A DNA stretch of 64,000 nt, taken from Anaerolineae bacterium (GTDB lineage: Bacteria; Chloroflexota; Anaerolineae; UBA7937). Where the stretch lies: positions 1,024 through 65,023 of the forward strand of contig DAOULQ010000005.1 in the NCBI GenBank assembly GCA_034419095.1. The letters are read 5' to 3'. This document shows positions 11,562-40,616 of this stretch, piece after piece. Made by a program: the position numbers and the translations under genes. The stretch's first letter is position 1, and every line of letters starts with the position of its first letter. Under the pieces are notes generated by a model that searched no databases, was not told the origin of the DNA, and was given only the letters and a program-made list of their open reading frames with translations.

Positions 11562-11636
11562 GCCCCTATAGCTCAGTCCGGATAGAGCAGTGGTTTCCTA
11601 AACCATGTGTCGCAGGTTCGAATCCTGCTAGGGGCA
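11562..11636 (+). tRNA. tRNA-Arg (anticodon CCU)
   Basis: GCCCCTATAGCTCAGTCCGGATAGAGCAGTGGTTTCCTAAACCATGTGTCGCAGGTTCGAATCCTGCTAGGGGCA. The cloverleaf pairs and the anticodon loop is TTCCTAA. Confidence 0.92.
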
Positions 11637-13150
11637 CCTTCCGTTCCACCGTCCTCGAGCGGGAAGGAGTAGGTCAGCACTCCGTAGTCTCGATACACCT
11701 CGATCCGCTGCACCATCCTCCTGAGATACTTGCGCCCCTCCATGCCTCCTTGCGACAGCGCCTCATGCAACCCTTCTAAGTATGCCACGATTTGATCTTT
11801 TGTCAAGTTCGGTACCTCAGGTTGGCCAGCCTCCAGCTGCGCTAAGCGACTGAGAACCTGAGCCTTCTCGTGCTGGCGCTCTTCTATCCTCTTGCTGATC
11901 TCCTCCCTGAGCCCTCCCACTTCCAGACCCTCGATGAGGTTCTGAATCTTCCTCTCCAGGGACCGCAGCTCCTTCTTCAGCCCCTTGATCGTCTTTTCGG
12001 CATCATCCGTCTCTTGGGAGAGGGCCGCGTTGGCCTCCTCCACCAACCGGGTGACGTGCTCGTCGGTCATCGACTCCTTCAGCTTCTCGATGATCGCGCT
12101 CTCCAACGCACGGGCCCCGGTCTTCTTCGCCTTGGCACAGGCTTCCGCTCCTCTACGCTCCTTAGTGGAGCAGCGATAGAAGACCCAGCCCACCCTGCGA
12201 CCCTGGTGCCTATCCACGCCGCCATTCATGGGGGCTTTGCAGTACCCGCAGTAGACCAGACCTGAGAGCAGATAGGGACTGGCCCTCCGGCGGGGATGAT
12301 CGTGAGGATCCTTCGCTTTTGGACTCACTTTGCGCCTCCTAGATTGAACTATGTCCCAGGTCTCCTGGTCGATCCTCGCAGTGTGGGCATCGGGCACCTC
12401 CAGCTCTCCACACTTCCGGATGCCGAGATACGTCTTGTTAGTCCACATGCTGCAGTAGCAGCCCATGTTCTTGAAGATCCGCGTCTTTCTGTGGATCTCC
12501 CTGTCGCTGTGGCCTTCACGCTTCATCTGCCAGGCCAGGCCTACCCGGTCCCAGTATTCGGGATCGGGAACCCAGCGGCGGACCTTTCTCTTCCCGTCTC
12601 CCAGTTGGATCTCCATTTCTTCGGCCTTGTACCCACGAGGAGGGAAACCACCTGGGGCGTAGCCAAGTTTGGCGATGGTGTGAAGGCCCCGCTTGATGGC
12701 CTTGGCTTGGTCTTTCAACCGCTGGGCGTCTTTCCAGTGGATCAGGGACTCTATGATGTACCTCATCCCCCGGTCTTCGACGGGCACATCGTCGGTGGCG
12801 GAGATAACCTCGATACCTAGCCTGCGGAGATCCGCCTTGAAAAAGTGGGCATCGTCCTCGTCTCTGGCGAAACGAGACCAGGAGAAGAGGATGATGGCGG
12901 CAGGCTTCGGCTCCACCTGGTGTGCCTGGTAGATCATCTGGTTAAAGTCGTCTCTCTTCACCACGTCGCTGCCGGGCTTCGCCTCGTCGACAAACCAGCG
13001 GGTGATGACCAGGCCGTGGTCTCGACCCCAGTTCTCCATGAACTCGCGCTGACTGACGATGGTGCCTCTCTCTTGCTGCTCCGGGCCCGAGACGCGGAGA
13101 TAGGCCCAGACGGAGGAACCGCGAGGTAGTGGGGAACCTTGATTAGTCAT
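11573..13150 (-). CDS. large serine recombinase (resolvase domain + recombinase domain + zinc ribbon + coiled coil); 3' end overlaps tRNA-Arg antisense
   Basis: 525 aa. N-terminal resolvase motif AYLRVSGPEQ (catalytic Ser). CGYCKAPMNG...YRCSTKERRGAEAC zinc ribbon, then a long coiled coil. The last ~21 codons (GAPSRIRTCDTWFRKPLLYPD) are the reverse complement of the tRNA. Confidence 0.88.
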   Translation of the reverse strand: MTNQGSPLPRGSSVWAYLRVSGPEQQERGTIVSQREFMENWGRDHGLVITRWFVDEAKPGSDVVKRDDFNQMIYQAHQVEPKPAAIILFSWSRFARDEDDAHFFKADLRRLGIEVISATDDVPVEDRGMRYIIESLIHWKDAQRLKDQAKAIKRGLHTIAKLGYAPGGFPPRGYKAEEMEIQLGDGKRKVRRWVPDPEYWDRVGLAWQMKREGHSDREIHRKTRIFKNMGCYCSMWTNKTYLGIRKCGELEVPDAHTARIDQETWDIVQSRRRKVSPKAKDPHDHPRRRASPYLLSGLVYCGYCKAPMNGGVDRHQGRRVGWVFYRCSTKERRGAEACAKAKKTGARALESAIIEKLKESMTDEHVTRLVEEANAALSQETDDAEKTIKGLKKELRSLERKIQNLIEGLEVGGLREEISKRIEERQHEKAQVLSRLAQLEAGQPEVPNLTKDQIVAYLEGLHEALSQGGMEGRKYLRRMVQRIEVYRDYGVLTYSFPLEDGGTEGAPSRIRTCDTWFRKPLLYPD

Positions 13151-13222
13151 CGTTTGCTGTCCAGATTCTTGCTGTGCTCTGTTCCTTGGTTGAGACGCCG
13201 GCCCAGATGACGGTACGAACGG

Positions 13223-13885
13223 TTATTGTGGAAGCTGTGACCGTTCCGGTAGATATATGTTGAGAACCCTTATTGCTTCATCCAATCGCTTCACAAGGAA
13301 CCCGCATTGCCATTTCATGACCTCACATATCCTTTCGCGGTTTTTCTTCGCCGTGCTGAGGCTTTGAGAAATCCCCACAGAGAGATCTATTAGCAAAGGT
13401 AAGAGCACATTGATGTCCTCGATTGTGGTATACACGTGAAGCAATGGAAAGAGCAACTCAGCGGGGATATTATCTAATAGCGGGCCCGAACTGACGGATC
13501 TCCAGCCACCCGTTGGGAGGGGGTTGGTGGGGATCCATCCTTCTTCCAGGCCTGTCTCCAGCCATTCGGTGACTTGCGACTGCGTTTTGTGGAGCTCGGA
13601 ACGCAGTAGTTCTAGGACTTTTCTTGCCTTCTCGGCCTTCTCTTCAGCTCTAGCTCTGCGCTCCAACCATCCTACGACCAAGACACCGATGGCAATAGCC
13701 ACCAGGAGGTCAGACAACAGGTTGGCAGAGAACTGTTGTGCCCAGTTTGGGCTCCTTCGAACCCCGATAGTCCACAGCAGTATCATGGCCAAAGCCACCA
13801 TAGTTAACCAAAACCACCATTGAGCCCAGAATCGATTCCGTGGCCTCACGCTCACACCCTCACATTCCTTCTTCCACTCTGCCAC
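13223..13885 (-). CDS. hypothetical 2-TM membrane protein with cytoplasmic helical domain
   Basis: 220 aa. Two N-terminal hydrophobic helices followed by a coiled-coil segment. The GTG start lies inside repeat R1a, so the start is uncertain. Confidence 0.5.
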   Translation of the reverse strand: MAEWKKECEGVSVRPRNRFWAQWWFWLTMVALAMILLWTIGVRRSPNWAQQFSANLLSDLLVAIAIGVLVVGWLERRARAEEKAEKARKVLELLRSELHKTQSQVTEWLETGLEEGWIPTNPLPTGGWRSVSSGPLLDNIPAELLFPLLHVYTTIEDINVLLPLLIDLSVGISQSLSTAKKNRERICEVMKWQCGFLVKRLDEAIRVLNIYLPERSQLPQ

Positions 13886-13922
13886 CAGATGGTGAATACC
13901 CCTGGTGGGTGATTGAAGTGCT
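13853..13922 (-). repeat. R1a conserved intergenic element
   Basis: Plus strand reads CACACCCTCACATTCCTTCTTCCACTCTGCCACCAGATGGTGAATACCCCTGGTGGGTGATTGAAGTGCT. Near-identical blocks at 16085-16154 and 20331-20400. Confidence 0.85.
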
Positions 13923-14425
13923 CAGCCTCGGTGATTGTTGTTCTTCTCCGCCCTTGCTCTAGCACGAGAAATATATCCCCCCTCGAAGCTAGCAACGTAC
14001 TGATCGAACGGCGTATTGGGATCTATCTTGTCTTTGTCATGGTAGAGCCTACGAAAGCGACGGCATCTATTGATCATGTTCTTCGAGATCCCTAAGTCCC
14101 GTGTTAGATGTTTGACCATTCCGTCCAGGAAGAACATGCCATCCTCGTATTTACGCTCATATTGAAAGATCCTATCACCCAGCTCCCAGTACAAGAACAC
14201 TCTCGGTTGGCCGCCATTCTGATTTGCGAGCGAGGCGAGTATTCCTCTCAAGTCATCTATCAAGTCCCAATATCCCTTCTCAAGAGATTCGAGAAGTGCT
14301 TCGACGTCGTCGTTCGTGACTTCTTCTTGGAATATCGAGGCAACCGGTATGGTTGCCCTAACGGTTTCCTTGCCGTCCGGCGATCTGATCTTCTGGACCT
14401 TGAAGCCGATTCTTATTTGTGTCAT
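13922..14425 (-). CDS. YhcG/DUF1016 N-terminal-like helical protein (no nuclease domain), partner of the GHKL ATPase
   Basis: Start set at MTQIRIG. Its ATG overlaps the upstream TGA (ATGA coupling). The segment LYWELGDRIFQYERKY...MVKHLTRDLGISKNMINRCRRFRRLY resembles the DUF1016 N-terminal module. Confidence 0.6.
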   Translation of the reverse strand: MTQIRIGFKVQKIRSPDGKETVRATIPVASIFQEEVTNDDVEALLESLEKGYWDLIDDLRGILASLANQNGGQPRVFLYWELGDRIFQYERKYEDGMFFLDGMVKHLTRDLGISKNMINRCRRFRRLYHDKDKIDPNTPFDQYVASFEGGYISRARARAEKNNNHRG

Positions 14426-15957
14426 TGCTGCTCTCCCCAAAGAGTGAAAACCTGGCCCATGAGATCGAAGGCCTTTTGACATGATGGTTCGGGATCGTGG
14501 TCCATCGAGAACCTTGTAAGTTCTACAGCGGTGGTCTTCAGGACATGGTAGTTTGCTGCTTCTCGTGCTCTAGAAGATCTGACATATGCAGGATGGGCCG
14601 TGTTGATGACAATCGTCTCGCCATCGAACCACCCTTCATTTGAGAGATCGGCTCTCTCCTCAAAACCCAAACGAATGCCCCCACGAATGACGCGCCGATG
14701 TACCTCGGCTCGTCTTCCCTCCCCAGGTTCGACTGTCGGTGCAACCCCTTCTTCTGGCCCTGGGTAGACATCAATTCCTTCTCCGGTTCCCGGTCCTCCT
14801 TCTGTTCCGGGAGCCTTTTGTGTTCCGCTACCGAGGCTTCGCTCCTCCCCACTCTCGTCAGGGATTGCAGCACGCGCTACTCTGCGTGCTCCGAAGAAGG
14901 TCAATGATGGGATTTGCTTGAGTATCCGGTTGATTTCCCGTTCCAGCTCAGGGAATACAAGGGGTCGTGGTTCTCTCTTTTCTAGGAGCCCTGCGCCCTC
15001 CAGCCATATTGCGAATTCCTTCTGTGCCCGGCGAAAGAAACCCTCCCAATTCTTGTTTCCCCTCTGGAATCGGCATTTGTCCGTTGTGACAGCTTTGATA
15101 AGATATGGAGCCTCAATCCATCCGAAGATTCTATCCTTATGGCGTGGCTCCTTCTTGAACCACGTCCGCTCTATGACCTTCCCATAGGTCGTTACGGCCA
15201 CCCCCTGAAGATGTTCGGGGAGCACCTCTTCTGCTAGCCCAAAGAATCCCCATCCCTGCGGTTTCTTGTAGCGAAGGATGGAGAACTCTTTCCGATGATT
15301 CAATGTCGTTTCGATCGGGCCACTAGTGATGACTGAGGCGTTCACCACGAACTTCAGGCCTTTCCGGTACTGCTCACGATACACTTCAAGCCTGCCCCTG
15401 CCGCCCTTTAGCAGGGGACGGTCTCCGGTATAGACCTGGACTAATTGCGGATCAAGTAGTGGGAAATAATGGTCTTCGAGAATTTGCTTTACTAGAGTAG
15501 GTGTATAGAATGACTTGCGATCCTTTTCCAGATATAGAGAGACTCGCGTTCCCGTCCCCGACAGTGTTCTCTCGTCAATGTAACGATATGGTGCATCATC
15601 ACCCTCCAATCTCCATATCGTTGCATCATGATAGTTCTTGCTGCGAGTCTCACTGATGATTCTATCGCAGAAGTTCAGTGCCAGTTTGGCGCCCTGCCCT
15701 GCAAAGCCGATTCCGGCACCTCTTTCCTTAGTGGTGGTTGCGAAATCGTGGTACTCCTTGAACTGCTTTCGCGTCATTCCAACACCGTCGTCGGTTACTC
15801 GGAGGATTGCATCTGAAATCTGGATGTCGATTACACGAGCTTTGGCGTCAAGTGCATTCGCTACTAGTTCGATCAGGGTAGCGACCTCGGGTTCGAAAGG
15901 ATATTGGTCCGCAATGTTTTGAGCCAGTCTTCGGATATTTACACCACTCTTCGGCAT
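14422..15957 (-). CDS. GHKL-superfamily ATPase (HATPase_c_3 / MORC-like)
   Basis: Start set at MPKSGVN with GGAGGAGG 8 nt upstream. Bergerat-fold motifs ELVANALDA (N box), DDGVGM (G1) and GIGFAGQGAKLA (G2). Long C-terminal region of unknown function with a Gly/Pro/Glu-rich linker. Confidence 0.8.
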   Translation of the reverse strand: MPKSGVNIRRLAQNIADQYPFEPEVATLIELVANALDAKARVIDIQISDAILRVTDDGVGMTRKQFKEYHDFATTTKERGAGIGFAGQGAKLALNFCDRIISETRSKNYHDATIWRLEGDDAPYRYIDERTLSGTGTRVSLYLEKDRKSFYTPTLVKQILEDHYFPLLDPQLVQVYTGDRPLLKGGRGRLEVYREQYRKGLKFVVNASVITSGPIETTLNHRKEFSILRYKKPQGWGFFGLAEEVLPEHLQGVAVTTYGKVIERTWFKKEPRHKDRIFGWIEAPYLIKAVTTDKCRFQRGNKNWEGFFRRAQKEFAIWLEGAGLLEKREPRPLVFPELEREINRILKQIPSLTFFGARRVARAAIPDESGEERSLGSGTQKAPGTEGGPGTGEGIDVYPGPEEGVAPTVEPGEGRRAEVHRRVIRGGIRLGFEERADLSNEGWFDGETIVINTAHPAYVRSSRAREAANYHVLKTTAVELTRFSMDHDPEPSCQKAFDLMGQVFTLWGEQQ

Positions 15958-16084
15958 TGCTCGTCCTCCTCCACGCTCCGAGTTCTGCATGTCTTCCGGC
16001 AGGGGTGAAGCTAGTTCCGCTAATCTTCGTTTGTCCGGCCTTTTCCTTCAGGCGTCAGCATTGCATCCCCACTTGGTGGGTGCC

Positions 16085-16154
16085 CACACCCTCACATTCC
16101 TTCTCCCACTCTGCCACCAGATGGTGAACGCCCCTAGGCAGATGATTGAAGTCC
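16085..16154 (-). repeat. R1b conserved intergenic element
   Basis: Plus strand reads CACACCCTCACATTCCTTCTCCCACTCTGCCACCAGATGGTGAACGCCCCTAGGCAGATGATTGAAGTCC. Lies between the MTase stop (16181) and the GHKL start. Confidence 0.85.
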
Positions 16155-16180
16155 AGCTCGTTGTATCCTGACTGAACATC

Positions 16181-19100
16181 CTAACTCAACTCCTCAAGCG
16201 AACGTTTGATCTCTGCTAGTTCCTTATCGGTGAAGCCCCAGAGTTCTGCGGCTTTGCGGTCTATCTCCTCCTCGACCTGCTTTAGGGCTTCCTTCTCCCC
16301 CTTGGCGGCCAACTCATGAGCACCCTGGGAGAGGGCGGAGAGTTCCTGGTGGAGAGGGTTCTGGGGATCGAATTTGGGGATGTCAGCATATTCCAACAGG
16401 TGGGCAGAGGCGAAGCTCTTGCCGACGGAATAAGACCTTGCTATGAAATCGACAATGGAGGAATTCAGCACCGTAGATAAAAAGTGAGCTTCCTTGTGAT
16501 CACTTGCTTCCACGAACAGTACTGTGTTTTTGTGAATGGGCACCTTTTCGCCGACGAAATGATCAGCAAATGGCGTCACAACGGCGGCCTCTAGGCTTGG
16601 GCCCATAGACTTCCAAATGACCTTGCTAGTCGCGAAGGTGTATGGCCCAACGTTATAGATAGAATAGAACGGGTCTGACTGGGGATCAAAGTACTTCTTG
16701 TATCCGCTTCTCTCCCTCAAAATGTGCTCAAATTGCTTGAGGTAAGAATAAGTGTTTGGCAGTTCCACCTTCAGCCATCTTTCGTCATAGCCCACCCTGC
16801 GGTCCGGGTCTTGCACCATGAGAATATAGAAGGAAGGCTTTGCGGAAAAGGGACTAACGTTCTTCCATGGGATGAATGGGTAGACCAGCGTGGGCTCTAA
16901 TACAGCCTGCACCTGCTTAATATCTTTCTTGCCAAGCTCTGGCAAATTCTCAACAACCAAGAGTCCATCTGAACGCTTTTCAATAATCCGAAGCCAATAG
17001 ATACCATCGGCCCATGTAGTTGCCCCTGCCCTCGCTTGGTATTCAGATGAGCCAAAAGCCCTACGGATGGCGCTAATGGCCTTTGCCCTTGCGGTGAACC
17101 AGGGAGCTGTGGGCTGAGCCGCGCGGACCGGTTCTGCTTGGAAGTGGCTTGTGGTGGTAAGTTGCTTCACTTCCTCAAGAGAGTTATCCACTCCCAGGCT
17201 AACCCTTTTTCTCTTGCGCCAGAGTGTGTAGGGAACTGGATATGACGTGGAATGGCCCTTCTGTAGCACGATCACGCTGGTCCAATTTGAAGCCCCCTCA
17301 AAAGGCTGCAAGGCCACCATGTCGTCCACATGAAGCACCCGTAAATCGGCCCCTTCCTCACCCAACTTGAAGCGCCGAAAGCCATCCCCGGCCCCTTTGG
17401 TCTTGAACAGCGTTTGCGTAATGACAAAGCCCAATTTACCCTTATCCTTCAAGTAATGGTCTATGCAGGCATAGGCAAAGAGCGCCGCTAAATCTTTCTT
17501 TCCGCCGCCAAGCCTAGCGCGCCAGCCTTTGAGGCTAAAGAGACCATAATCCACCCAGAGGGGCTTGGTGGCATCCCTGTACTCGTCAGACAGGCTCTCC
17601 CAGTTGACCCAAGGAGGATTGCCCACGACGTAGTCAAAGGGCTCCTGGAAGATAGGAGCAAAGGCGTTCTTGAGAATACGAGCCCAGATGCGGTTGCGTC
17701 CCTCCTTTTCAAGTTGCAGAAGCGTTTGGTATAGTGAAGATAGACCAGTGCTCGTGGCTCCCTCCTTGAAAGCGAGTTCACGCTCTGCTCGCTCCAGGAA
17801 CTCCTTCTCCTCGTACTGGCTTTTCACGCATTCCTCTAGTAATTGACTGAGTGCATCCATTTGCCTATTAACAATGATCTCCCTAGGCATCATAAATTTG
17901 CCTGCAACAGTGGTAATCACTGGGCCTTGCTCAAATAGGCCTGGTTTCAACGGCTCCGAAGGCGTGAGGATGGAGTCGCACATGTAAACAGGGATAGTGA
18001 TGGGGGAGATGGCCCGGCGGAGATTACCGAGAGCCAGAAGATAGGTAGTCCGGGCGGCGATGACCGCTATAGGGTTGAGATCGAAGCCCACCACATTTTT
18101 CAACACCTTTTGAGCCACATCTGCGTACTCCAGCAGTTTCTCGTCGGCGTATTCGCGGATACGCTTGATAGCCAGAGCCAGGAAAGTGCCGGAGCCGCAA
18201 GCGGGGTCTAAGAGGCGGAGATCAGGGTTGCCGTCGTAGCCAACTTGATTTAGAAGGCGTTCAGCAAGCCAATCGGGAGTATAGTATTCGCCTAAGTCAT
18301 GGCGAAGTTTCTTAGGGACCAGATATTGATAGAGTTTCTTCAAGAGGTCACGAGTGGCTTCCGGGTCTATCTCAGCGGTGGCGGGCTCAAAGTCGGATAG
18401 ACGACGGGCCATGCGGCGAATGGCCGCGCTAACATCTCCATTCCAGTCGGCGAGATACCAACCGAAGAAGTCGCCTTCCAGAAAGTTCAGGATGCCGAAG
18501 GCCTGAAAGTGCCCGCCATCCTCAAGGTTGCTAAGCTGGCTTTGCAACTCAGCATCCGAAAGTGCAGCCAGTTGAGTGACGAAGGAGGGAACATACGACT
18601 CAGGCTGAAGGGAGAGGAGTTCAGCGACGAGAAGTTTCATCAGAAGAGCGTAGTAAGTGTGGACGGCGAAGAGCAAGGGCTTCAATTCTACCCGCATGTC
18701 TACGCCGTACCTCTTTGCCAATTGAGCGGCGTCCTTCTCGGCTTTGCTTATATCTTGCCCGTAGACAATGCCAAAGATGCGGTCCCACTCTTTGAAAAAG
18801 GTATCGACCTTGGGGCTCTTGGAAGCCAAAAGCGTCTGGTAGAAGGTATTCACGGCTTGGCGAGCAGTTTCAGCGTCGGGCCCGAATTCCTTGGTTAGTT
18901 CCTCTGGGGTGAGAGGATAGCGGTGGAGGGCGCGGATATAGGTAAGGAATAGTGAGATGGTCTGGGCATTAACCGGATTAGGTCCATCGAGGTCAAAACC
19001 GCCGGGGAGGATTGCTTCAGGCAAGAGAGGGAGTTGAGCACTGGGTTTCCTCTTGGGAAAAGGTACTTTTGCCCTGGCCTTGGTGCCAGTGTATCGCACG

Positions 19101-19477
19101 AAGAGTATCTGAAATCCGTCGAGGGAGACGCCGACCATCCTCTTCAAAGCGGCCTCTTTCTGCTTCTCTCCATGGCGCGAGGCCTCGGCGTCGAGATATT
19201 TGACGAGTTGCTCAATCGTCTCCTCTTGTCCCCTCTTGCTCTTGAGTTTGCCTGGACGCTCGTATTCGAGAATTAGGTGGCCGTGGATGGCATCATAGAA
19301 AGAGGTACTGGTGGCTTTCTCATATCGAGGCTCGGTAGTGATGTCGAGGGCTTTCAGCACGGGATCGAGGGCTTTTTCCACGCCGATGCGAAGGTCCTCC
19401 TCTGTATCGGCTCGCTTAGCTACTGTGAGGATGTCTTTCGCCAATTGCTCTGCCAAGGGTTGTCGCTTGTTGATCAC
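16181..19477 (-). CDS. large gamma-class N6-adenine DNA methyltransferase (Type IIG/IIL- or PglX-like architecture)
   Basis: 1098 aa. Motif I LDPACGSGTFL, motif IV VVGNPPWVNWESL, and a long C-terminal TRD-like region. The N-terminal segment FYDAIHGHLILEYERPGKLKS resembles an MmeI-type D-x(8-9)-E-x-K nuclease motif but reads E-Y-E. Confidence 0.85.
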   Translation of the reverse strand: MINKRQPLAEQLAKDILTVAKRADTEEDLRIGVEKALDPVLKALDITTEPRYEKATSTSFYDAIHGHLILEYERPGKLKSKRGQEETIEQLVKYLDAEASRHGEKQKEAALKRMVGVSLDGFQILFVRYTGTKARAKVPFPKRKPSAQLPLLPEAILPGGFDLDGPNPVNAQTISLFLTYIRALHRYPLTPEELTKEFGPDAETARQAVNTFYQTLLASKSPKVDTFFKEWDRIFGIVYGQDISKAEKDAAQLAKRYGVDMRVELKPLLFAVHTYYALLMKLLVAELLSLQPESYVPSFVTQLAALSDAELQSQLSNLEDGGHFQAFGILNFLEGDFFGWYLADWNGDVSAAIRRMARRLSDFEPATAEIDPEATRDLLKKLYQYLVPKKLRHDLGEYYTPDWLAERLLNQVGYDGNPDLRLLDPACGSGTFLALAIKRIREYADEKLLEYADVAQKVLKNVVGFDLNPIAVIAARTTYLLALGNLRRAISPITIPVYMCDSILTPSEPLKPGLFEQGPVITTVAGKFMMPREIIVNRQMDALSQLLEECVKSQYEEKEFLERAERELAFKEGATSTGLSSLYQTLLQLEKEGRNRIWARILKNAFAPIFQEPFDYVVGNPPWVNWESLSDEYRDATKPLWVDYGLFSLKGWRARLGGGKKDLAALFAYACIDHYLKDKGKLGFVITQTLFKTKGAGDGFRRFKLGEEGADLRVLHVDDMVALQPFEGASNWTSVIVLQKGHSTSYPVPYTLWRKRKRVSLGVDNSLEEVKQLTTTSHFQAEPVRAAQPTAPWFTARAKAISAIRRAFGSSEYQARAGATTWADGIYWLRIIEKRSDGLLVVENLPELGKKDIKQVQAVLEPTLVYPFIPWKNVSPFSAKPSFYILMVQDPDRRVGYDERWLKVELPNTYSYLKQFEHILRERSGYKKYFDPQSDPFYSIYNVGPYTFATSKVIWKSMGPSLEAAVVTPFADHFVGEKVPIHKNTVLFVEASDHKEAHFLSTVLNSSIVDFIARSYSVGKSFASAHLLEYADIPKFDPQNPLHQELSALSQGAHELAAKGEKEALKQVEEEIDRKAAELWGFTDKELAEIKRSLEELS

Positions 19478-20217: not shown

Positions 20218-20226
20218 CCTCTATCT

Positions 20227-20280
20227 CTACTTGCCGTTGTTTACTGCCTCCAACCCTCCCTACTTCCCGAAGACGATTCC
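20227..20280 (-). repeat. R2-1 conserved upstream element (diverged copy)
   Basis: Plus strand reads CTACTTGCCGTTGTTTACTGCCTCCAACCCTCCCTACTTCCCGAAGACGATTCC. It aligns with R2 at 24305-24362. Ends ~10 nt upstream of the PD-(D/E)xK start. Confidence 0.65.
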
Positions 20281-20330
20281 GCTCCGTGTTCATTGCTCTC
20301 ACCCTGCCGCAGAAGAGGCGGGGCCTCGGC

Positions 20331-20400: not shown

Positions 20401-20417
20401 CCTTCTGGGCTAAGGGG

Positions 20418-28733: not shown

Positions 28734-28734
28734 C

Positions 28735-32772: not shown

Positions 32773-33253
32773 ATGAGTGAGGAAGACCTGAAGGTAGTTG
32801 GGGAACTCTTCGACAAGGCAAAGGAGAAGTCTGAGCGGGACGGCTACCTGACACCAGTTCTCTTCGCCTGGGCACCCTGTGGGCGCCTGACAATCAGCTT
32901 CATTGAGGGCAATCTGCGCAACATCTTGCCAAGTACGTGCCACACGCTACGGCTCTCGGGCTATGATAGGTTCGCCCTGATAATCGAGGGGTGGATCGTT
33001 CTGGGAGAAGAGAACCTCCAAAGACATCGAAAGCTGGGTAGGAAGGATGCAAGAGCAGCCAAAGGTACAAACCTCTATCCAGATCATCTTTGTTAGCCCA
33101 GAAGAGACCTTTGGCAAGTTTGCCATCTATGATGAGACCCAGGGCGGTTGGGTTCTGCTCAAAGAAGTAGAAAGCACGCCAGATTGGAGCCTCGCTGGTG
33201 TCTTGATAGATGCCACAAAGGGAGGCGTAGATCGAGAACACAAAGAGGAATAA
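32773..33253 (+). pseudogene. frameshifted paralogue of the 159-aa protein at 48059-48538
   Basis: ORFs 32773-33096 and 33047-33253 together align to the whole 159-aa protein. There is one extra C at ~33018-33019 (AACCTCCAAAGAC versus AACCTCAAAGAC). Confidence 0.8.
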
Positions 33254-33289
33254 GGGATCTTTCAGAAGCAGAACCCAACAAGGCAGAGC

Positions 33290-33500
33290 GTGAGAACAGG
33301 AAAAGGCTAACGAACCCCCTCCGTCCTCACTCGAACCCATAAACCAGCCTTATCACCGTATCAGAGCCTCTCTCACCCGTTCTCTCAGGCGATTCTTGGG
33401 GGTAGACAGGAGCCATGGGGCCAGGTGTGATCTCAAGGGTCTAAGCGGGTCTTCATATGATCTTATGCCTAGAAAGAACGTGGCAATGGGAGGGCAGACG
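33290..33500 (+). repeat. R3 dispersed repeat, copy 1 (intact, shows the empty IS110 target)
   Basis: ...CCGTCCTCACTCGAACCCATAAACC...CTCTCTCACCCGTTCTCTCAGGCGATTCTTGGGGGTAG...GTGATCTCAAGGGTCTAAGCGGGTCTT... aligns with 60840-60914 + 62596-62775 and with 59830-60085. Confidence 0.75.
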
Positions 33501-33722: not shown

Positions 33723-36700
33723 TCATGATCGTTTGGCTTCAGGGAAGACGACATACGTGCCATCCTCGACTATCCTTCCATCATTGAGTAGCTCCATGAC
33801 AATATGGTCTACAACAGCGTTCATGTCACTCGTAGTACGCTTGAACCCAAATAGTTTGCATACTTCATTCGGAATCATTTCGCGCTGTATCCCATAAGAG
33901 GCTCCGACAACCTTCGATATCGCTAATTCAATCTCTTCTGGCGCTATCAAGCGAATATGTCGTGATGCATTGGGCAGGCCTGATCTTGAACGAAGCTTCG
34001 GCTGCTTCATACCCGGTCGCCAGAGGAACGGTCCCCTTCCAATTACGAAACCCTCATCAATAGCAGCTCTCAAACCCAGCTCAAAGGTTGTCCGAATTCG
34101 CCTTCCAATTCGCTTAACCCCTGCGCAGTTCGCAATCCGTCTGGCCACTTCGTCCTGGTGAACAGGGCTTTCAGTATCAACCACGTCTTTGATCCAAGCG
34201 GCCATTCGGCGCCGCGAAACTTCATGCAACTGCTCTCTGTAGTATAAGGTAATGTTCGGCTTCGCTGTCTTGTATGGCTCAGAATCAAGGGCAGGTCTTT
34301 TGGCCATTCCTGGCTTGTGCCTCTCGATTGGTGGTGCTCGTTGAACGTGACTGTGTGGCGAACTCATTTCGGACTGCGCCTCAGATGCGCGGTGTCCCTT
34401 GGCTGCCTCAATGCCTTTTTCTAGTCGCTGCATCTCTCGTCCAGGATTGCGAAACCAATCCGTGCTCCAAATTCGATGAATCTGCCAGCCTAAGTTTTCT
34501 AGCACTTCTTGTCGTAGACGATCTCGATCTCGGGCTGACCTTGCGCTGTGGTAGGTTGCGCCATCGCATTCAATGCCAAGCAAGTACCTTCCCGGTTGGT
34601 CCTCATCAACAATCGCGAGATCAATGAAGAACCCTCCGGTTCCAACCTGATGTTCCACTCGATGGCCCAATTGCCTTAGTCTGGCTGAGACAGCTTCTTC
34701 AAACGGGGATTCGACCTCTCCTCCAGAAGGTATAGGAATATCAAGATAACCTGTGTCGGCGTATTTCAGGAATCTCTTCAAGACTTCAACACCTCTAGCT
34801 CTTGTCTTACCTAGGTCTATGTCGTCGGCCTTTAGATTCGTGAATACTTCGCATCGCTTTCGAGCCCTTGTGATTAGGACGTTTAGTCGACGTTCTCCCC
34901 CCTCATGATTCAGCGGACCGAAATTCATGCTCACTCGACCGTCGCTAGTTCGTCCATAGCCCACACTTATGAAAATCACGTCACGCTCATCACCCTGAAC
35001 GTTTTCTAGATTCTTGACGAAGAACGGCTCTTCCGGATGGCTACGGAAGAATTCCTCGCAGGATACATCCTGGCGCCGACCTATCTCAAGTTGGTCCCGA
35101 ATAGCCTCTGTTTGGCTAATACTAAAAGCAGCTACTCCTAACGTAAGGTCAGGGGAGGTTTTTGCGTGGCGCATGATCGCCTCGGCAACCTTCTTGGCTT
35201 CTCCTAGATTTTTGCGACTCTTTCCTCGGTCATACTCCGTATTAGGCAGATAATGATAGAAAAGCCCCACTTCTCTCTTGCCCTTGTCAGGACTAGGGAA
35301 TACAACTAACTTGTTGTGATAAAACTCGTAGTTGGAAACGGTAATCAAGGATTCATGTTGGCTCCTGTAGTGCCAACGAAGCATTCTTTGAGGGATTCCT
35401 TGAGCGACAGATAGACCCAATATGCTCTCAAGGTTGACTGGTTCGCTCTCAGAGTAATCCTCATCCACATCGATCACAGTTTCAAAAAAAGGTGTCGGAG
35501 GGAGTTGGCGATCATCTCCAACAACCACCACCTGCGTTCCTCTCAAGATCGCGCCAAACGCATCAACAGGTTTCACCTGACTCGCCTCGTCAAAGATGAC
35601 CATATCGAAATCTACTGTGTCGGGGGGCAAGAACTTGGCAATCGAAAGTGGGCTCATCATAAAGACCGGCTTCACGACTTGGATGACGTTCCCGGCCTCC
35701 TGCATCAGTTTCCTGATCGGTCTATGACGCCGTTTCTTTGCGAACTCATAATACAGGACACCAAGCTGACCACTAGCTCGATGTTTGGGTAAGGTCTTCC
35801 AATGGTCATAGGCTAGTTGAACACGATTCTGGTCTAGTAATCTCGTATCCAATTCGCAAAACTTCCTCATGGAGAGTTCATGGATTTCACCATCGAAATC
35901 CCGCAATATCGGACGCTCTACCCATGCTCTTTCAAGCAACATGCTTAACCATGTATGTTGGAGGAGATCAACAAGGTGGCGGTGTGCAAGCGGCCATGAA
36001 AGTGAGGTTTCTACAACGCTCTCAAGACCTGTCTCATCTAATTGGCGTGCTAGGCCCCTCAGCGCTATGATTTCTTGTAAACGGTCTAGCTCATTTAGCC
36101 AGTTCTTGAGATGGTTGTCCTGCTCCTTCAAAGGAAGGTCGATGAGCGTCTTGCCCTCTCCAAATCTCATCGACTGATCAAGTTCAAGGCTTTCGATTGC
36201 TTCTTGAGTTGCATTCTCGTGCCCTGCAAGCTTGCTTCTCAATTGAGCGTTCTCTTGTTCAAGGACCGATGAGCCGGCCAAGGTGGCGACGAAGTCTACA
36301 ATCTGAGTTGGCAGTTCGCCTTCATTGATCTTCCTGTGCAATCCTGCAAGCCAACTCGAAATGCCAATTAACTCTTCCCAGTTTGATTGGACGCCTCGCC
36401 ATCTTGCACCAAAGAGATCGCTTGCTTCTTCATTGAAATCTTCTACAGTAGGGGTTAACCTATTGACTTCGAGGATTGCATCAAGAATCTCAAGCTGGCG
36501 GTCGCTGGACTTCGGCAGATCCTTCGTGCAAAGATCGGCCAGTCTTGTCTTAGCTTCCCGGTAACTCCTCGATAGTGTGCGCCACCACTTTGGCCCATAA
36601 TGAGCAATCAAGCCACGGAGCTCCAGGACGTCCTCATCCCATGACTCATCTCTTACGATCTTGTCGTACACGTCGTGCAGGCACTTGATCCTGTGGCCAG

Positions 36701-38510
36701 CTTCTAGGGTCCTCTCAATTTCACTCGCTTTTGCTCCCCAGACTTCTGAATCAACTTTCACCCTCTCCAAATTCGGGGCACTCAAGACAAAATGCGACGT
36801 CTCTAGCATAGTCTTGATCTCAGCTGTTGATGCTGCCTCAGGCAGAAGCAGGAGTTCAGAGACTTCTCTCGAATTGTATCGAAGATCATCAAGTGATTGT
36901 ACTGCATTTGATAACTGCTCTCGAATATGATCCTTCTTGGCCGGAAGGAGGATAGAAACTTGACTTCCCCAAAAAGGGTGGTCAACAGGTCGTCCGATTT
37001 TGTTTATGAAAAGCTGAAGCTCCTCGACCAAGGACAGATTCTCATGGACTTCTTCACTTGTCCAAGTATCCACCGCGCTTATCTCGAGCTTAGGGAGTTC
37101 TATCCCGGAAAGAATCTCTTTGATTTGGATTAGACGACCATATACTTCATAGGGTGTTAATCTACTATCGCCAATCTCTGCATTTACCGCTTTGCTATAG
37201 CCATTCAACCTGGCCTGATGCCGTATCAACTGCTTTGTGTCAACAGGCGCGCCAAGCTTGGGTTGACCCAGTTCTAAGGATCGCTTCAGTTCATCTAGCA
37301 CGATTCTTTTCTTTGTCTTTTGGCTATGCAGTTCTAGGCATGCGTCTCCGAGGCCTACTTGATCCAACCGACGCTTGACTACTTCAAGTGCTGCCATTTT
37401 CTCTGACACAAACAGGACGGTTTTCTCATGACCAATCGCTTCCGCGATTAGGTTGGTTATCGTCTGCGATTTTCCTGTGCCTGGCGGGCCTTGGATGACC
37501 AAATTCCGCCCCTTATTGACTTCGAGAATGGCCAGTATCTGCGAGCTATCCGCATCGACAACATGATGGATTTCTTCTGGAGAGACGTGCGTATCGATCT
37601 CGATTTCATCATTGAATTCCAGCCTGGATCCATCGAACCCATCAAGTGATAGTAGGCTGCGTAGAATTGGATGTCTTTCTGGCCTTGATTCCTCTGACCA
37701 ATTGTTCGAATCAAGATCGTTGAACATCAAGAACTTGCCAAAGGAGAAGAAGCCCAGGGCAACCGCCTTCGTATCCACTTCCCATCTTGGATAATCCCCA
37801 ATCGCCTTTGATATCTCTTGAAAATATGAATTGATGTCGATGTCCTCCGCCTCAGGGAATTCCGGGAGCTTGATCCCAAAATCCGATTGGAGTTTCGCTC
37901 GTAGCGATAGATTCTCGTCAATATCGTCCCCCGAATACCGAACGCGAAATCTCGACCGCACGTTCGATCGGCTAGGCTCAACAGGGACAAGGATAAGCGG
38001 GGCCTTGCGGACATCATCGCTTGATGGAGACTCATACCAATGAAGCATGCCAAGAGCCAGGAATAGTATGTTCACACCCTGCTCTTCTATATAAGTGCGC
38101 GCGGCGTAGTACGTATTCAGTAGACGTCTTTGAAGTGCTTGCGATATATACGGGCTTTGTAGCTTATTATCCATGTGTCGAAGGGCAATTCCGTTCTCAT
38201 CTTCCTCCGGCTGTCCCAAACCTTCGATGATGATGTCTTGCTCCTCTCGAAACAGGGCCTGTTGATTACCCTTCTCTTGTTCTTCCTCAGGGATCGACAA
38301 GAAGGACATTGAACGTCCTTCATTCACCAGAATCCGAAATACTTCGGTGGGAAGCTCATCGATAATTTCAACACCTTTCGTCTTCAGCGGCCTATAGTTC
38401 AGGAGCTTGTTCCGAAGGCTGAGATCGAGAAGGTCTTTGCGTGCGTCATCGAGCGTTGCTCTAACAGGATCTTCGGTTTCCTCGATTGTGGGTATCTCTT
38501 GCTTCTGCAT
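33723..38510 (-). CDS. Hhe-type giant: DUF4011 + Upf1-like SF1 helicase + Vsr/DUF559 endonuclease + DUF3320-like C-terminus
   Basis: 1595 aa. Helicase motifs VIQGPPGTGKSQTITNLI and MVIFDEASQV, then VGDDRQLPP. Vsr-like fold GIECDGATYHS...RDRDRLRQEVLENLGWQIHRIWSTDW. Confidence 0.85.
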   Translation of the reverse strand: MQKQEIPTIEETEDPVRATLDDARKDLLDLSLRNKLLNYRPLKTKGVEIIDELPTEVFRILVNEGRSMSFLSIPEEEQEKGNQQALFREEQDIIIEGLGQPEEDENGIALRHMDNKLQSPYISQALQRRLLNTYYAARTYIEEQGVNILFLALGMLHWYESPSSDDVRKAPLILVPVEPSRSNVRSRFRVRYSGDDIDENLSLRAKLQSDFGIKLPEFPEAEDIDINSYFQEISKAIGDYPRWEVDTKAVALGFFSFGKFLMFNDLDSNNWSEESRPERHPILRSLLSLDGFDGSRLEFNDEIEIDTHVSPEEIHHVVDADSSQILAILEVNKGRNLVIQGPPGTGKSQTITNLIAEAIGHEKTVLFVSEKMAALEVVKRRLDQVGLGDACLELHSQKTKKRIVLDELKRSLELGQPKLGAPVDTKQLIRHQARLNGYSKAVNAEIGDSRLTPYEVYGRLIQIKEILSGIELPKLEISAVDTWTSEEVHENLSLVEELQLFINKIGRPVDHPFWGSQVSILLPAKKDHIREQLSNAVQSLDDLRYNSREVSELLLLPEAASTAEIKTMLETSHFVLSAPNLERVKVDSEVWGAKASEIERTLEAGHRIKCLHDVYDKIVRDESWDEDVLELRGLIAHYGPKWWRTLSRSYREAKTRLADLCTKDLPKSSDRQLEILDAILEVNRLTPTVEDFNEEASDLFGARWRGVQSNWEELIGISSWLAGLHRKINEGELPTQIVDFVATLAGSSVLEQENAQLRSKLAGHENATQEAIESLELDQSMRFGEGKTLIDLPLKEQDNHLKNWLNELDRLQEIIALRGLARQLDETGLESVVETSLSWPLAHRHLVDLLQHTWLSMLLERAWVERPILRDFDGEIHELSMRKFCELDTRLLDQNRVQLAYDHWKTLPKHRASGQLGVLYYEFAKKRRHRPIRKLMQEAGNVIQVVKPVFMMSPLSIAKFLPPDTVDFDMVIFDEASQVKPVDAFGAILRGTQVVVVGDDRQLPPTPFFETVIDVDEDYSESEPVNLESILGLSVAQGIPQRMLRWHYRSQHESLITVSNYEFYHNKLVVFPSPDKGKREVGLFYHYLPNTEYDRGKSRKNLGEAKKVAEAIMRHAKTSPDLTLGVAAFSISQTEAIRDQLEIGRRQDVSCEEFFRSHPEEPFFVKNLENVQGDERDVIFISVGYGRTSDGRVSMNFGPLNHEGGERRLNVLITRARKRCEVFTNLKADDIDLGKTRARGVEVLKRFLKYADTGYLDIPIPSGGEVESPFEEAVSARLRQLGHRVEHQVGTGGFFIDLAIVDEDQPGRYLLGIECDGATYHSARSARDRDRLRQEVLENLGWQIHRIWSTDWFRNPGREMQRLEKGIEAAKGHRASEAQSEMSSPHSHVQRAPPIERHKPGMAKRPALDSEPYKTAKPNITLYYREQLHEVSRRRMAAWIKDVVDTESPVHQDEVARRIANCAGVKRIGRRIRTTFELGLRAAIDEGFVIGRGPFLWRPGMKQPKLRSRSGLPNASRHIRLIAPEEIELAISKVVGASYGIQREMIPNEVCKLFGFKRTTSDMNAVVDHIVMELLNDGRIVEDGTYVVFPEAKRS

Positions 38511-39023
38511 TGGCTTGGTCCCTGTTGTTACGTTCTCACTATTGCACCCATCTTTGAGCCTGCAACCATGACAGCATACCGAGTAGTTGAGTGCACTCGA
38601 TAAGCCATAGATACAATGCGAAGCGAATGCCGCCTAACTATTCGTGCTGCCGAACCCTTTCGGCCTGGCCGCTCAGTCTTGGTAGATGGAAGAGTTCCAG
38701 CACAGCACCCTCACCGGGGTGCATTGTTTCCACATTTTGCTCATAGAAGCCAAACTCTGAACTCAAACACAAGGCCGACCCCCTCCTAGCATTGGCCAGG
38801 CAGACAGTCGGCTTCACATTCACGCTATCACCTCCCACAACGCTCTATTGCGATGATCCTGCGATGTGAGTGCTTGCCAGGTCTTCTCTTCCCATTCTAC
38901 CATAGCCGCAGGGGCAAATCAATGGGCATAGAACGGTAAGACGCCCTTCCATCCCCTCTGGAACGCGTGAGCGACCAGCCACACCACGCCGCGCCCTCTC
39001 CACACCCTACCGCTCGCCTCTCA

Positions 39024-39081
39024 CCAAACCACTTACTGTCTATTGACGCCTATGCTCCCTTCCCGACTCAACTACGACCCC
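39024..39081 (-). repeat. R2-3 conserved element
   Basis: Plus strand reads CCAAACCACTTACTGTCTATTGACGCCTATGCTCCCTTCCCGACTCAACTACGACCCC. Lies 70 nt downstream of the PIN stop and ~510 nt upstream of the Hhe start. Confidence 0.8.
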
Positions 39082-39151
39082 AAGGATGCACACTGATCGC
39101 AATCGCTTGATTTCAGAAGATCCTCATGTGTTCTGTGTTCTTGTCCAGTTG

Positions 39152-40246
39152 TTACTCGAGCTTCTTGCCGATGGATACGAAGTCAACCGACGTTACTTCG
39201 CTCGTAGCCGGGTCAAAGGTCATCTCTACTTCCATGTCGAGCCATCTTGAGGTACGCACTTCAACATGGTAGCGATCCCAATCATGATCTGGGACCTCAG
39301 GAGCGTCCCGGCCCCTCATTGCATAGTAGTCCGCTCTTGAAACAAGAACGGAGAACTCACATTCTACAGGCACCAGAACATAAAGTAGGAACTCGCCGGA
39401 ATGAAGCTCGCGGACATCCAATACATGGGGGGGCTCTGAGTCTGAAACGCCTGCTAGACGCAATCTCTCGAATGTCGAAGGAAATCCCAGTTTAGCGGGG
39501 TCCCAGCGGGCATCACTCATAGCGTAAGGCAAGCGGCTAACGACGACAGCCACTTCTTTCCACAGATCAAGTCCAGGATATCGGCCGCCCGCAATCCGCT
39601 GGCGTATGTCCTCCAGAGCCTCCATCGTAGGTTTGATATGTTCGTCCACGAATTCCCTTAGGCTGCCAAACAGAACAATTCGACCAGATTGGATGCCTCT
39701 CACCTCCATGTCGGCAACCAAGTCGGGATGGAGATTGCCCTCGTCATCGCAGAAGTCCTGCCTGTTTGCGGAAATGAACCCGATGTCCTGGCCCGGCCTG
39801 GCACCGAGATCGATGACATTTTCCCAGATTAGAGCGTCTCGATAGCCCGCGTCGCCTCGTGAGAAGGGCTTCCTTCGATTTAGTGCGCGCTTAACAATCT
39901 CTTCGTGGGGGATACTGGGGTAGTCCATAATAGTCGCTCCAGCCTGTGCAAATCGAGACGGCAACATTTGGCTGTAGTCTTCGACCAGACTATCAATGTC
40001 GGCATCGGTGAGAGGGGATTCGATCTCCGTACCGCTGAGTCTTCGAGCCTTGTCGAGCGACCCTTCGATTCTGCGCTGGCAATCACGTAGCCTCTCTGCG
40101 TACTTGTTCGTAGTCTCATCGATGACAAGTTTTGGGATGTGGAGCGAGTGATCGGCCCGAGGCAGGCCATCGAACAACACCCGAAATGGGCTACCAGACA
40201 TTGGGAAGTCTTGGCATATAATATTGGTGTCGAGGACTATTCGCAT
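39152..40246 (-). CDS. PIN-like nuclease domain protein (DUF4935-like) with C-terminal unknown domain
   Basis: 364 aa. MRIVLDTNIICQDF (first PIN acidic residue), with later YRDALIWENVI and FISANRQDFCDDEG acidic motifs. Confidence 0.65.
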   Translation of the reverse strand: MRIVLDTNIICQDFPMSGSPFRVLFDGLPRADHSLHIPKLVIDETTNKYAERLRDCQRRIEGSLDKARRLSGTEIESPLTDADIDSLVEDYSQMLPSRFAQAGATIMDYPSIPHEEIVKRALNRRKPFSRGDAGYRDALIWENVIDLGARPGQDIGFISANRQDFCDDEGNLHPDLVADMEVRGIQSGRIVLFGSLREFVDEHIKPTMEALEDIRQRIAGGRYPGLDLWKEVAVVVSRLPYAMSDARWDPAKLGFPSTFERLRLAGVSDSEPPHVLDVRELHSGEFLLYVLVPVECEFSVLVSRADYYAMRGRDAPEVPDHDWDRYHVEVRTSRWLDMEVEMTFDPATSEVTSVDFVSIGKKLE

Positions 40247-40276
40247 GATCTCCTCTTGAGCTACCCTGGCCTATAC

Positions 40277-40316
40277 CTTCTCACCTATGGTCCCTTCCCG
40301 AATAGAGTACCACTCC
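40277..40316 (-). repeat. R2-4 conserved upstream element
   Basis: Plus strand reads CTTCTCACCTATGGTCCCTTCCCGAATAGAGTACCACTCC. Lies ~30 nt upstream of the PIN start. Confidence 0.75.
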
Positions 40317-40616
40317 TATCATCAACACAACGGGCTCGCCCGCCAGGTGGGCAGACAAGCCCATGTATCCGTTGCGATTGCCAGGTATCTGCTGCAACCC
40401 CTGGCCTTGGCCTCGAAGGCTAGGTGCAAGCCACGAGGCTTTTTCTATTCTTTTCCGCAACCATTCTAGCGTGGCTTTCAAGCGATGTCAACAGTGCAGC
40501 AGCGCCGAATGACCAACGGAAGGGCTACCACTCTCACCACCCGCGAGGCCGTTTTCGCCGTCCAGAGGCGGCCCTTACCTCAACGAAGTTCTGCCGCCAA
40601 CGAAGAACCCAATCCC

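Follow-up and report, generated by a model that had tools for sequence, protein, structure and literature searches.

A probable temperate-phage remnant with stacked defence genes at a tRNA-Arg gene of an Anaerolineae bacterium

The DNA analysed here (the window) consists of 64,000 nucleotides from an Anaerolineae bacterium (Chloroflexota; UBA7937; GenBank assembly GCA_034419095.1, contig DAOULQ010000005.1, positions 1,024 to 65,023 of the forward strand), and all coordinates below are those of the window. The region between ~11.63 and 40.4 kb, which starts at a tRNA-Arg(CCU) gene and carries several antiphage defence genes, is probably what is left of a temperate phage with a Chloroflexota host, now grounded, decayed and mosaic. 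An earlier note, based on the sequence alone, had proposed a ~29-kb defence island flanked by tRNA-Arg. This proposal is supported, with the corrections that the island is a decayed mosaic and that its right edge rests on composition and on the last phage-type block. It is not demonstrably an intact or a single element, because it holds no right attachment site (attR) and no structural genes, and because it contains the relic of a second large serine recombinase (LSR) gene and a pseudogenised repeat of a segment that lies at 46.4-48.6 kb.

The lysogeny and replication core

Evidence for a phage origin comes from the repressor and the recombinase. The cI-like repressor gene (24356-25051, minus strand) encodes HTH_3 and Peptidase_S24 domains according to Pfam and matches phrog_4. 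Its product shares 73% identity (77% in the nucleotide sequence) with cI from the 55-kb IMG/VR contig L103/L125 and 36%, over the full length, with cI from phage L088. The LSR gene (11573-13150, minus strand) encodes 525 aa with the Pfam domains Resolvase (E 6e-12) and Zn_ribbon_recom (E 2e-11), and matches the integrases of phrog_95 (E 2e-60). The recombinase is intact, and the alignment with its homologues, of which 92 were retrieved, reveals that every family-invariant residue has been kept. One of them (P0004, 49% identity) is encoded in contigs with SLT lysis and tail genes, where a cI-like HTH+S24 protein of 233 aa, a 56-aa open reading frame (ORF) and the LSR follow each other in this order. 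In L103/L125, ~7.7 kb of other cargo separates cI from a different LSR and encodes an HNH-domain protein, a LysM protein, a DUF2321 protein, a 323-aa protein, a 956-aa IIG-like methyltransferase, a membrane protein and a winged helix-turn-helix (wHTH) protein. The same interval of the window is occupied by 11.2 kb of defence genes, all of them co-oriented with cI and LSR; in the relatives it contains a small ORF only or a different set of cargo. The earlier note had recognised an integrative-element backbone made up of LSR, a CI/LexA-like switch, a replication initiator and AbiE. Each of these genes was verified by profile search, and the backbone, which is real, can be refined to a temperate-phage lysogeny and replication module because the relatives of cI and LSR adjoin in phage contigs.

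The remaining parts of this module lie to the right of cI. A promoter scan located the divergent promoter pair of the immunity switch at 25079-25145, where the rightward promoter is a perfect TTGACA-17-TATAAT facing the cI promoter. A 63-aa ORF follows on the plus strand (25195-25386), in the position of a Cro or excisionase gene; by eye its product is ribbon-helix-helix-like, and neither phrog nor further profile searches gave any family match. The RepO replication initiator (26133-27185, plus strand) contains Phage_rep_O and DnaA_N domains. Between these two genes there are two tandem copies of a 21-nt repeat (GAGTGACTATCAGGAGTGGCC, 25693-25734), which could be an operator or an iteron. As regards the repressor itself, the window cI and its two phage relatives retain the catalytic serine of the S24 family (GDSM/GHSM, residues ~187-193 in the window protein), but where LexA has Lys156 they have Arg or Leu, according to how the gaps are placed. 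Self-cleavage of this repressor under stimulation by RecA may therefore be impaired or unconventional.

The 5' end of another LSR gene survives as a 35-nt relic just upstream of the present one (13179-13215, minus strand). It includes the catalytic 'VSTKEQ' codons, has 88% identity to the beginning of the LSR gene in IMG/VR contig L102/L103 and is direct evidence of module replacement. In the ORFs from 11.6 to 40.4 kb, Pfam and phrog detected no gene for capsid, tail, terminase or lysis functions and, as the structural, packaging and lysis genes are absent, the element is called a remnant.

The recombinase and the tRNA-Arg junction

The left edge of the element lies at a cluster of tRNA genes. 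ARAGORN and Rfam agree on tRNA-Phe (9783-9858, minus strand), tRNA-Pro (11444-11519, minus strand) and tRNA-Arg(CCU) (11562-11638, plus strand), as the earlier note had claimed, and the last of them forms the host side of the left junction (attL). A sigma-70-like promoter was found by promoter scan at 11524-11552, 5' of tRNA-Arg(CCU). The LSR ORF ends at 11573 after running antisense through 66 nt of this tRNA gene, and its C-terminal residues (…APSRIRTCD…) are the T-arm of tRNA-Arg translated antisense.

The same geometry has been found in two homologues with 41-42% identity to the window LSR (overlap regions 11573-11665 in the window, 11518-11591 in contig L094 and 11503-11577 in contig L096). 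P0015, encoded in L094, a genome contig of 1.6 Mb, runs antisense over 55 nt at the 3' end of a tRNA-Glu(UUC), and P0009, encoded in L096, does so over 64 nt at that of a tRNA-Arg(CCG). In both contigs housekeeping genes lie on the tRNA side and element genes on the LSR side. The tRNA 3' end follows the conserved FP codons at a distance of 27 nt in the window, against 29 in L094 and 23 in L096. Since homologous recombinases overlap tRNA-Glu and tRNA-Arg(CCG) in the same manner, the left tRNA-Arg junction seems to be a genuine recombinase junction. Closer LSR homologues are present in two non-integrated phage contigs (L088 and L092), and at the equivalent position both carry a strong, imperfect palindrome (…GTACCCCTGGAGGrGTA…), as expected for a phage attachment site (attP). 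The half of this attP-like palindrome nearest to the LSR is similar to the G-rich strand at the 3' acceptor end of the three tRNAs.

From the three-way geometry of the window, L094 and L096, the putative attL crossover region with its element-side (P-type) arm is placed at 11628-11665, inside the 3' end of the LSR ORF. The crossover would lie ~10 nt from the tRNA 3' end, with the phage furnishing those nucleotides, and the last ~10 nt of tRNA-Arg(CCU) are therefore probably supplied by the element. Such a crossover would explain why the tRNA is intact, why the LSR ORF overlaps it and why no direct repeat is visible. It had already been pointed out that no obvious direct repeat marks the right boundary, and indeed the window does not contain a second tRNA-Arg 3' end. 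When attR was sought in the window through the inverted P-arm, CCCCTNNAGGGG or AGGGG[CT]A, only matches at chance level were obtained. Two candidates were discarded: an 8-nt match at 29769 lies inside a GC-rich repeat similar to repetitive extragenic palindromic (REP) elements and has no P'-like arm, and an attP-like string at 25669 occurs at a frequency expected by chance.

Attachment sites in the bacterial chromosome (attB) that overlap tRNA genes have been described for tyrosine integrases, and the sites of serine integrases have been described as hard to predict (PMC10654092). A limited literature search did not find any description of a serine integrase that targets tRNA genes.

Composition and the right edge

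The lower GC content of two long stretches, which the earlier note had judged by eye, was confirmed once it was computed. The left flank has a GC content of 0.56-0.61, with a GC content at third codon positions (GC3) of 0.66-0.79 per gene, and the GC3 of recD2 is 0.75. GC falls to 0.49-0.54 (GC3 0.51-0.61) at 13.2-24.2 kb, and to 0.48-0.53 (GC3 0.50-0.58) at 30.6-40.2 kb. The backbone genes are host-like in GC3 (LSR 0.745, RepO 0.70, AbiEii 0.70, AbiEi 0.80) and the cargo is low, so the island is a host-adapted scaffold with two compositionally foreign inserts.

The RecD2 gene identified with Pfam (40617-42833, minus strand) has its stop codon at 40617. Composition switches between ~40400, where the last phage-type block ends, and this codon. 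The right edge (40.40-40.62 kb) rests on this switch and on the last phage-type linker block, with neither an attachment site nor an empty site.

Mobile DNA also occurs on the other side of recD2. A decayed segment at 32412-33328 (plus strand) is repeated at 46367-46793 and 48043-48611 with 81-94% identity. The SPL-like gene is missing from the first copy, whose 159-aa ORF carries a frameshift; the second holds this ORF intact (48059-48538), together with an SPL-like radical-SAM gene (46763-48034, phrog_13321) that has a short homologue in phage L088. A truncated tyrosine integrase, of which only the N-terminal SAM-like domain is left, is found beside this second copy (48708-49223), so that at least one further mobile-element remnant (46367-49223) lies beyond recD2-HD/OB.

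Recognised defence systems

Profile searches of the window ORFs found all the modules named in the earlier note. Analysis of these ORFs with PADLOC, whose defence-system models date from 2023, and with NCBIfam recognised four systems: Type IIG restriction-modification (RM), PD-Lambda-4_A, AbiEi/AbiEii and PDC-S37/ProA. All of them lie within 25 kb, which makes the region a defence island.

The Type IIG enzyme (16181-19477, minus strand, 1098 aa) matches REase_MTase_IIG of PADLOC with E=0 and 1075 bits (residues 165-1098 against profile positions 137-1099 of 1100), and Pfam detects Eco57I, N6_Mtase and MmeI_Mtase. One polypeptide thus contains nuclease, gamma-class N6-adenine methyltransferase and specificity regions, as is typical of this type. 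The next recognised gene (20418-24212, minus strand) encodes a STAND NTPase of 1264 aa that matches PD-Lambda-4_A (E 1.8e-24) with a modest score of 83.6 bits, residues 5-1260 being aligned to positions 2-1276 of 1283. Its N-terminus has an Mrr-like motif (DGGVDG...YQIK) followed by the Walker A motif GEPGIGKT, and a search of PDB sequences gave no match. PADLOC treats PD-lambda-4 as a two-gene system, and the PD-Lambda-4_B partner was not detected, the neighbouring ORFs (19555-20217 and 20204-20491) having no PADLOC match. PD-lambda-4 has been renamed Avs8 and is reported to sense the phage major capsid protein (bioRxiv 10.64898/2026.01.04.697583).

The AbiE pair is encoded on the minus strand to the right of the phage core, AbiEii at 27837-28733 and AbiEi at 28735-~29556, so that an AbiEi antitoxin/regulator adjoins an AbiEii nucleotidyltransferase toxin. 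AbiEii is recognised by Pfam (E 2e-25), AbiEi_1 and AbiEi_4 are found on AbiEi, and the PADLOC matches have E-values of 4e-65 and 2e-62. A promoter-like site for the pair was found by promoter scan at 29657-29629. Finally, a helicase-nuclease of 1595 aa (33723-38510, minus strand) matches PDC-S37 of PADLOC (E=0, residues 14-1586 against positions 4-1543 of 1550) and contains DUF4011, AAA_11/12, MTES_1575 and DUF3320 (Pfam). It scores 1537.1 bits against NCBIfam antiphage_ProA, above the cut-off of 1500, covering profile positions 348-1903 only, and it stays below the equivalog cut-off of NCBIfam Hhe_antiphage (1051.6 bits vs 2000). Two labels of the earlier note can be made more precise with these results: the 'Avs-like' protein is indeed so and belongs closer to Avs8/PD-lambda-4, and the 'Hhe-type' protein is related to Hhe and is better placed in the ProA/PDC-S37 family.

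Candidate cargo

Several further genes accompany the recognised systems. A GHKL ATPase of 511-522 aa (14422-15990, minus strand; HATPase_c_3 in Pfam) forms a translationally coupled pair with a partner of 167 aa (13922-14425, minus strand), whose start overlaps the GHKL stop and which has a DUF1016_N-like (YhcG_N-like) wHTH region in profile searches. Homologues of the ATPase are present in bacteria and archaea, with a widespread and patchy distribution. A pair with 86% (GHKL) and 79% (partner) identity lies in a metagenome defence island with an AlwI-type RM system and GmrSD (L129, 6945-8980), and another with 52% and 37% identity lies between secA and valS in the L130-L135 lineage (L130, 5001-7039). 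The pair matched no named defence system in the libraries used, and the ATPase had no match among PDB sequences.

Two proteins of 220 aa are also encoded on the minus strand. One of them, upstream of the IIG gene (19555-20217), has a PD-(D/E)xK-type motif (PDIDLLV...IAIELK) and no family match in Pfam, PADLOC, NCBIfam and other libraries. The second (13223-13885) is a membrane protein predicted from its translation, with no family match in Pfam, PADLOC, NCBIfam or phrog. The idea that the two are paralogues was rejected on comparison, as was the homology of an L102 membrane protein to either of them.

The 319-aa protein encoded at 30574-31533 (minus strand), here called Rx4H, belongs to an uncharacterised family of ~285 aa with an RHHxTH motif (R185-H186-H187-x-T189-H190) that is invariant in 29 sequences. 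Its AlphaFold2 (AF2) model, confident with a predicted local distance difference test (pLDDT) value of 85, resembles nothing significantly in the PDB; HepT (6m6u) gives a weak partial match (E 0.8, TM 0.46 on target), and the sequence search of the PDB gave no match. A HEPN-like effector is possible. Regarding the 'HEPN-like' gene of the earlier note, the conserved Rx4-6H motif stands, and the assignment to HEPN stays hypothetical.

The last cargo gene (39152-40246, minus strand) encodes a PIN_12-domain protein of 364 aa (PF16289, E 6.7e-23) that has no PADLOC or NCBIfam match. In the 640-nt gap between it and the ProA-like gene there is a 61-aa ORF (38638-38823), which has also been called in Logan contig L086 and has no family match.

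Linker blocks between the cassettes

Short recurrent blocks, named A, B and D, separate the cargo genes, and all the copies of A and B sit between consecutive minus-strand genes. Block A, on the minus strand, is present at 24291-24362, where it begins at the cI stop codon, at 39010-39081 and at 40284-40328. The third copy, together with the block upstream of it (40284-40400), is the last phage-type sequence before recD2, and the stretch just upstream of this copy matches a metagenome contig that bears block B (L120). Block B, on the same strand, is found at 13850-13903, at 16082-16160 (core 16082-16135, with the remnant of a small ORF upstream) and at 20330-20378, the last copy being part of a stack with block D and an A-like block (20247-20378). 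Besides these three copies, B occurs once in L102/L103 (L103, 8897-9008) and in 20 metagenome contigs (L105-L124), a sample biased by the search pattern, which required the core. In the L125 cargo slot, too, the spaces between genes are taken up by A-like, D and B-like blocks.

Many of these contigs have a ~75-aa single-pass membrane ORF (…ILQVGESELDFNHPxGAFSIWWQSGRRNVRVWPR*) whose 3' end is block B; in L103 this ORF is translationally coupled to the methyltransferase gene. The ~50-nt core of block B, encoding the C-terminal peptide ...IWWQSGRRNVRVWPR*, lies upstream of unrelated cargo genes. The stop codon of the core varies (TGA, TAG, TAA) and there are synonymous AGT/AGC and GGG/GGA changes, some of which break the sole plausible hairpin; these observations argue that the core is coding and not an RNA hairpin. 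Around a third of the B copies have unrelated sequence upstream of the core, so that short ORFs with differing N-termini enter the same C-terminal peptide, and the three copies of the window are 5'-truncated. The GHKL cassette (13929-16121) is 85% identical in nucleotides to its counterpart in L129, where the neighbours are unrelated, and the homology extends from a degenerate B core, at the 5' end, to the stop codon of the partner gene.

The simplest reading of these blocks would be that of linkers for cassette exchange by homologous recombination among related phages; a shared expression or leader function is possible, and the B core might be a leader peptide or only the relic of a gene. Blocks A and B have no Rfam match at the gathering score or with E<=1, and were discarded as RNA elements because the consensus folds had no covariation support and the outer B-hairpin pairs are broken by synonymous changes. 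They were also discarded as sigma-70 promoters, since no consensus match was found.

Proposed history and its alternatives

According to the history proposed here, the LSR would have integrated a phage whose attP overlapped the 3' end of the LSR gene and mimicked the last ~10 nt of the tRNA. Inserting into tRNA-Arg(CCU) at its acceptor/T-arm region, the phage would rebuild the tRNA and leave the LSR ORF antisense into it. The surviving core consists of cI/S24, the divergent promoters, the ORF in the Cro position, the RepO-type initiator and LSR. The interval between cI and LSR holds lysogen-oriented cassettes (Avs8-like STAND, PD-(D/E)xK and Type IIG RM, GHKL and wHTH, membrane protein), and a second cargo block to the right comprises AbiE, the Rx4H protein, the ProA/Hhe-like helicase-nuclease and the PIN_12 protein. 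Phages of this lineage would most likely swap cargo through blocks A, B and D, acting as homologous linkers and possibly as expression leaders. Family membership predicts a layered defence of the host: restriction of unmodified DNA, sensing of capsid protein linked with nuclease action, abortive infection through a nucleotidyltransferase toxin and attack by a helicase-nuclease.

Some points weigh against this history. The window yielded no attR, and a repeat search allowing up to 3 mismatches detected no displaced copy of the tRNA 3' segment in it. The empty site was not obtained, and the right boundary is therefore not provable. The flanking YabN-like protein matched 80 loci, solely in Chloroflexota (Anaerolineae/Thermoflexales-like) metagenome-assembled genomes with best identities of ~51-53%, and none of the 80 (<=53% identity) shares synteny with the window; scanning metagenomes for the pattern of the tRNA-Pro/tRNA-Arg junction yielded 0 matches, and exact-protein look-ups for the empty site returned the same strain only (run SRR14802572). 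RepO had no close relative in the search of viral contigs. The part between 30 and 40.4 kb may belong to the same phage scaffold or may be a later accretion. The defence role of the cargo is predicted from family membership, and the GHKL pair, the 220-aa PD-(D/E)xK protein, Rx4H and the PIN_12 protein match no validated defence family. The linker blocks could also be relics of a small gene without any function of their own.

The main alternative is a phage satellite or integrative mobilisable island, a small element similar to phage-inducible chromosomal islands (PICI-like) that never had structural genes and carries defence cargo. Satellites are known to carry defence genes, and an LSR, a cI, divergent promoters, a small ORF and RepO in a region with no capsid, tail or lysis genes are what such an element would contain. 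Nevertheless, the phage contigs that hold the nearest relatives of LSR and cI are of full size (L088, which has lysis and tail genes, and L125, of 55 kb), the window has no attR, and Pfam and phrog recognised no terminase-small, capsid-remodelling or helper-interference gene. Decay is also visible in the pseudogenised copies, the ORF-poor stretches and the LSR relic, and a satellite seems quite unlikely. The mosaic GC3 and the second LSR relic would suit a non-mobile hotspot of defence islands, with several independent insertions by the tRNA cluster, among which LSR would be one passenger and the whole would not be one element. The remnant with the truncated tyrosine integrase at 46.4-49.2 kb, whose repeat is in common with 32.4-33.3 kb, and the host REP-like GC-rich palindromes inside the region point in the same direction. 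However, the A copies (24.3, 39.0 and 40.3 kb) and the B copies (13.9, 16.1 and 20.3 kb) connect the two cargo blocks with a single lineage of phages, and the order cI-cargo-LSR mirrors that of L103/L125; a hotspot, which must be regarded as unlikely, overlaps in any case with the phage-remnant explanation, as the latter includes accretion within a prophage scaffold.

That the region is ordinary core chromosome with a gene-specific dip in GC is extremely improbable. Only the missing empty-site comparison speaks for it, and it is refuted by the gene content, with phage integrase, repressor and replication genes and several defence systems, and by the similarity of the cargo cassettes to unrelated contigs, where they recur at 85-90% nucleotide identity in unrelated contexts. 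The sharp GC3 step at both edges also stands against it.

Comparison with known systems and significance

Defence islands whose scaffold is a decayed prophage with a serine integrase at a tRNA-Arg gene are a known kind of object. As in the defence loci of prophages (lambda rexAB by cI, the P2/P4 hotspots, mycobacteriophages), the defence genes of the window are co-oriented with the repressor and lie between repressor and integrase, and the cargo varies among otherwise related phages. The window differs from these loci in that its scaffold is decayed, with no structural genes or attR, in its uncultured Chloroflexota host, in the unusually large size of the slot (11 kb plus a second 10-kb block) and in the recurrent blocks at cassette boundaries. 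It shares with the tRNA islands of tyrosine recombinases the position at the 3' end of an intact tRNA, but it has a serine recombinase whose ORF runs antisense into the tRNA, and no repeat of the tRNA 3' half.

The window LSR has the resolvase domain, zinc ribbon and coiled-coil region of the large serine integrases of phages (phiC31, Bxb1, A118, SPbeta SprA), and in all of them attP lies by the integrase gene and the identity core is too short for visible direct repeats. Unlike those integrases, the window clade appears to target tRNA 3' ends (three independent cases, with three tRNAs) and its attP would overlap the C-terminal codons of the integrase. With Avs8/PD-lambda-4 the window STAND protein shares a full-length PD-Lambda-4_A match, the P-loop and a long helical C-terminus, although the match is weak (83.6 bits) and no PD-Lambda-4_B partner was detected. 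The 1595-aa protein resembles the single-gene defences Hhe and ProA in its DUF4011, superfamily 1 (SF1) helicase, MTES_1575 nuclease and DUF3320, above the ProA cut-off, whereas it is below the Hhe equivalog cut-off and does not contain the first ~347 positions of the ProA profile. The linker blocks can be compared with the linkers at mosaic joints of lambdoid phages and with integron cassettes, because short conserved sequences are found between exchangeable genes and the same block precedes unrelated genes. The breakpoints at the window blocks are nevertheless imprecise, and block B doubles as the 3' end of a small ORF. An integron was rejected: there is no IntI (the only tyrosine recombinase is the truncated fragment at 48.7-49.2 kb) and no attC-type structure, and A and B lie 5' of the cassettes.

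The less ordinary aspects, namely the tRNA-end geometry of the integrase clade, the recurrent boundary blocks, and the GHKL pair with the Rx4H family, deserve follow-up. The region documents the stacking of prophage-borne defence in Chloroflexota, whose phages have hardly been studied by experiment, and it supplies as candidates the GHKL and wHTH pair, conserved from Chloroflexota to archaea, and the Rx4H family, which has no structural relative. The recurrent boundary blocks are a concrete handle on the swapping of defence cassettes within one phage lineage. A bolder proposal, tentative and rather doubtful as a whole, joins an LSR clade that targets tRNA 3' ends, with an attP in its own C-terminal codons that rebuilds the tRNA, to A, B and D blocks that are functional elements of cassette boundaries. 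Serine integrases are valued as tools for genome engineering, and an integrase clade of this kind, if real, would widen their target range. If A, B and D were functional in a dedicated slot between repressor and integrase, they would be shared leaders or upstream ORFs as well as recombination linkers, and would allow an integron-like exchange of defence cassettes with no need of a recombinase; one candidate would be the B core, as the C-terminus '...IWWQSGRRNVRVWPR' of short upstream ORFs.

Other features of the window

Several repeats are dispersed over the window. GC-rich palindromic motifs (GCCTGTCCTGGC / GGCCAGGGG) have 7 copies against 0.6 expected, and their sites (11330-11368, 25409-25436, 25550-25583, 29745-29891 and 45215-45226) are found in core intergenic DNA as well as within the island; the motifs resemble REP-type elements of the host that have spread into the element. 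A different repeat of ~100-170 nt, with internal inverted repeats (TAGGTAT...ATACCTA), is located at 33313-33490, 59906-60007, 60842-60914 and 62594-62701, and is also present in the B-bearing metagenome contigs L112, L114, L120 and L123. It has no Rfam match and could be an element similar to miniature inverted-repeat transposable elements (MITE-like) or a small RNA.

The ~1.8 kb between 44890 and 46750 contain no convincing ORF. Three repeats of the TCCGTCAAGGATCCCTGYGGGAAA type occur there, at 45376, 45452 and 45661, and the stretch at 45.3-45.7 kb was considered as a CRISPR or tandem array, none of which was found. A degenerate string similar to a T-arm lies near 46255-46285. On the other side of the island, a T-box leader precedes valS (9342-9552; Rfam RF00230, 103 bits), as expected for the gene of an aminoacyl-tRNA synthetase.

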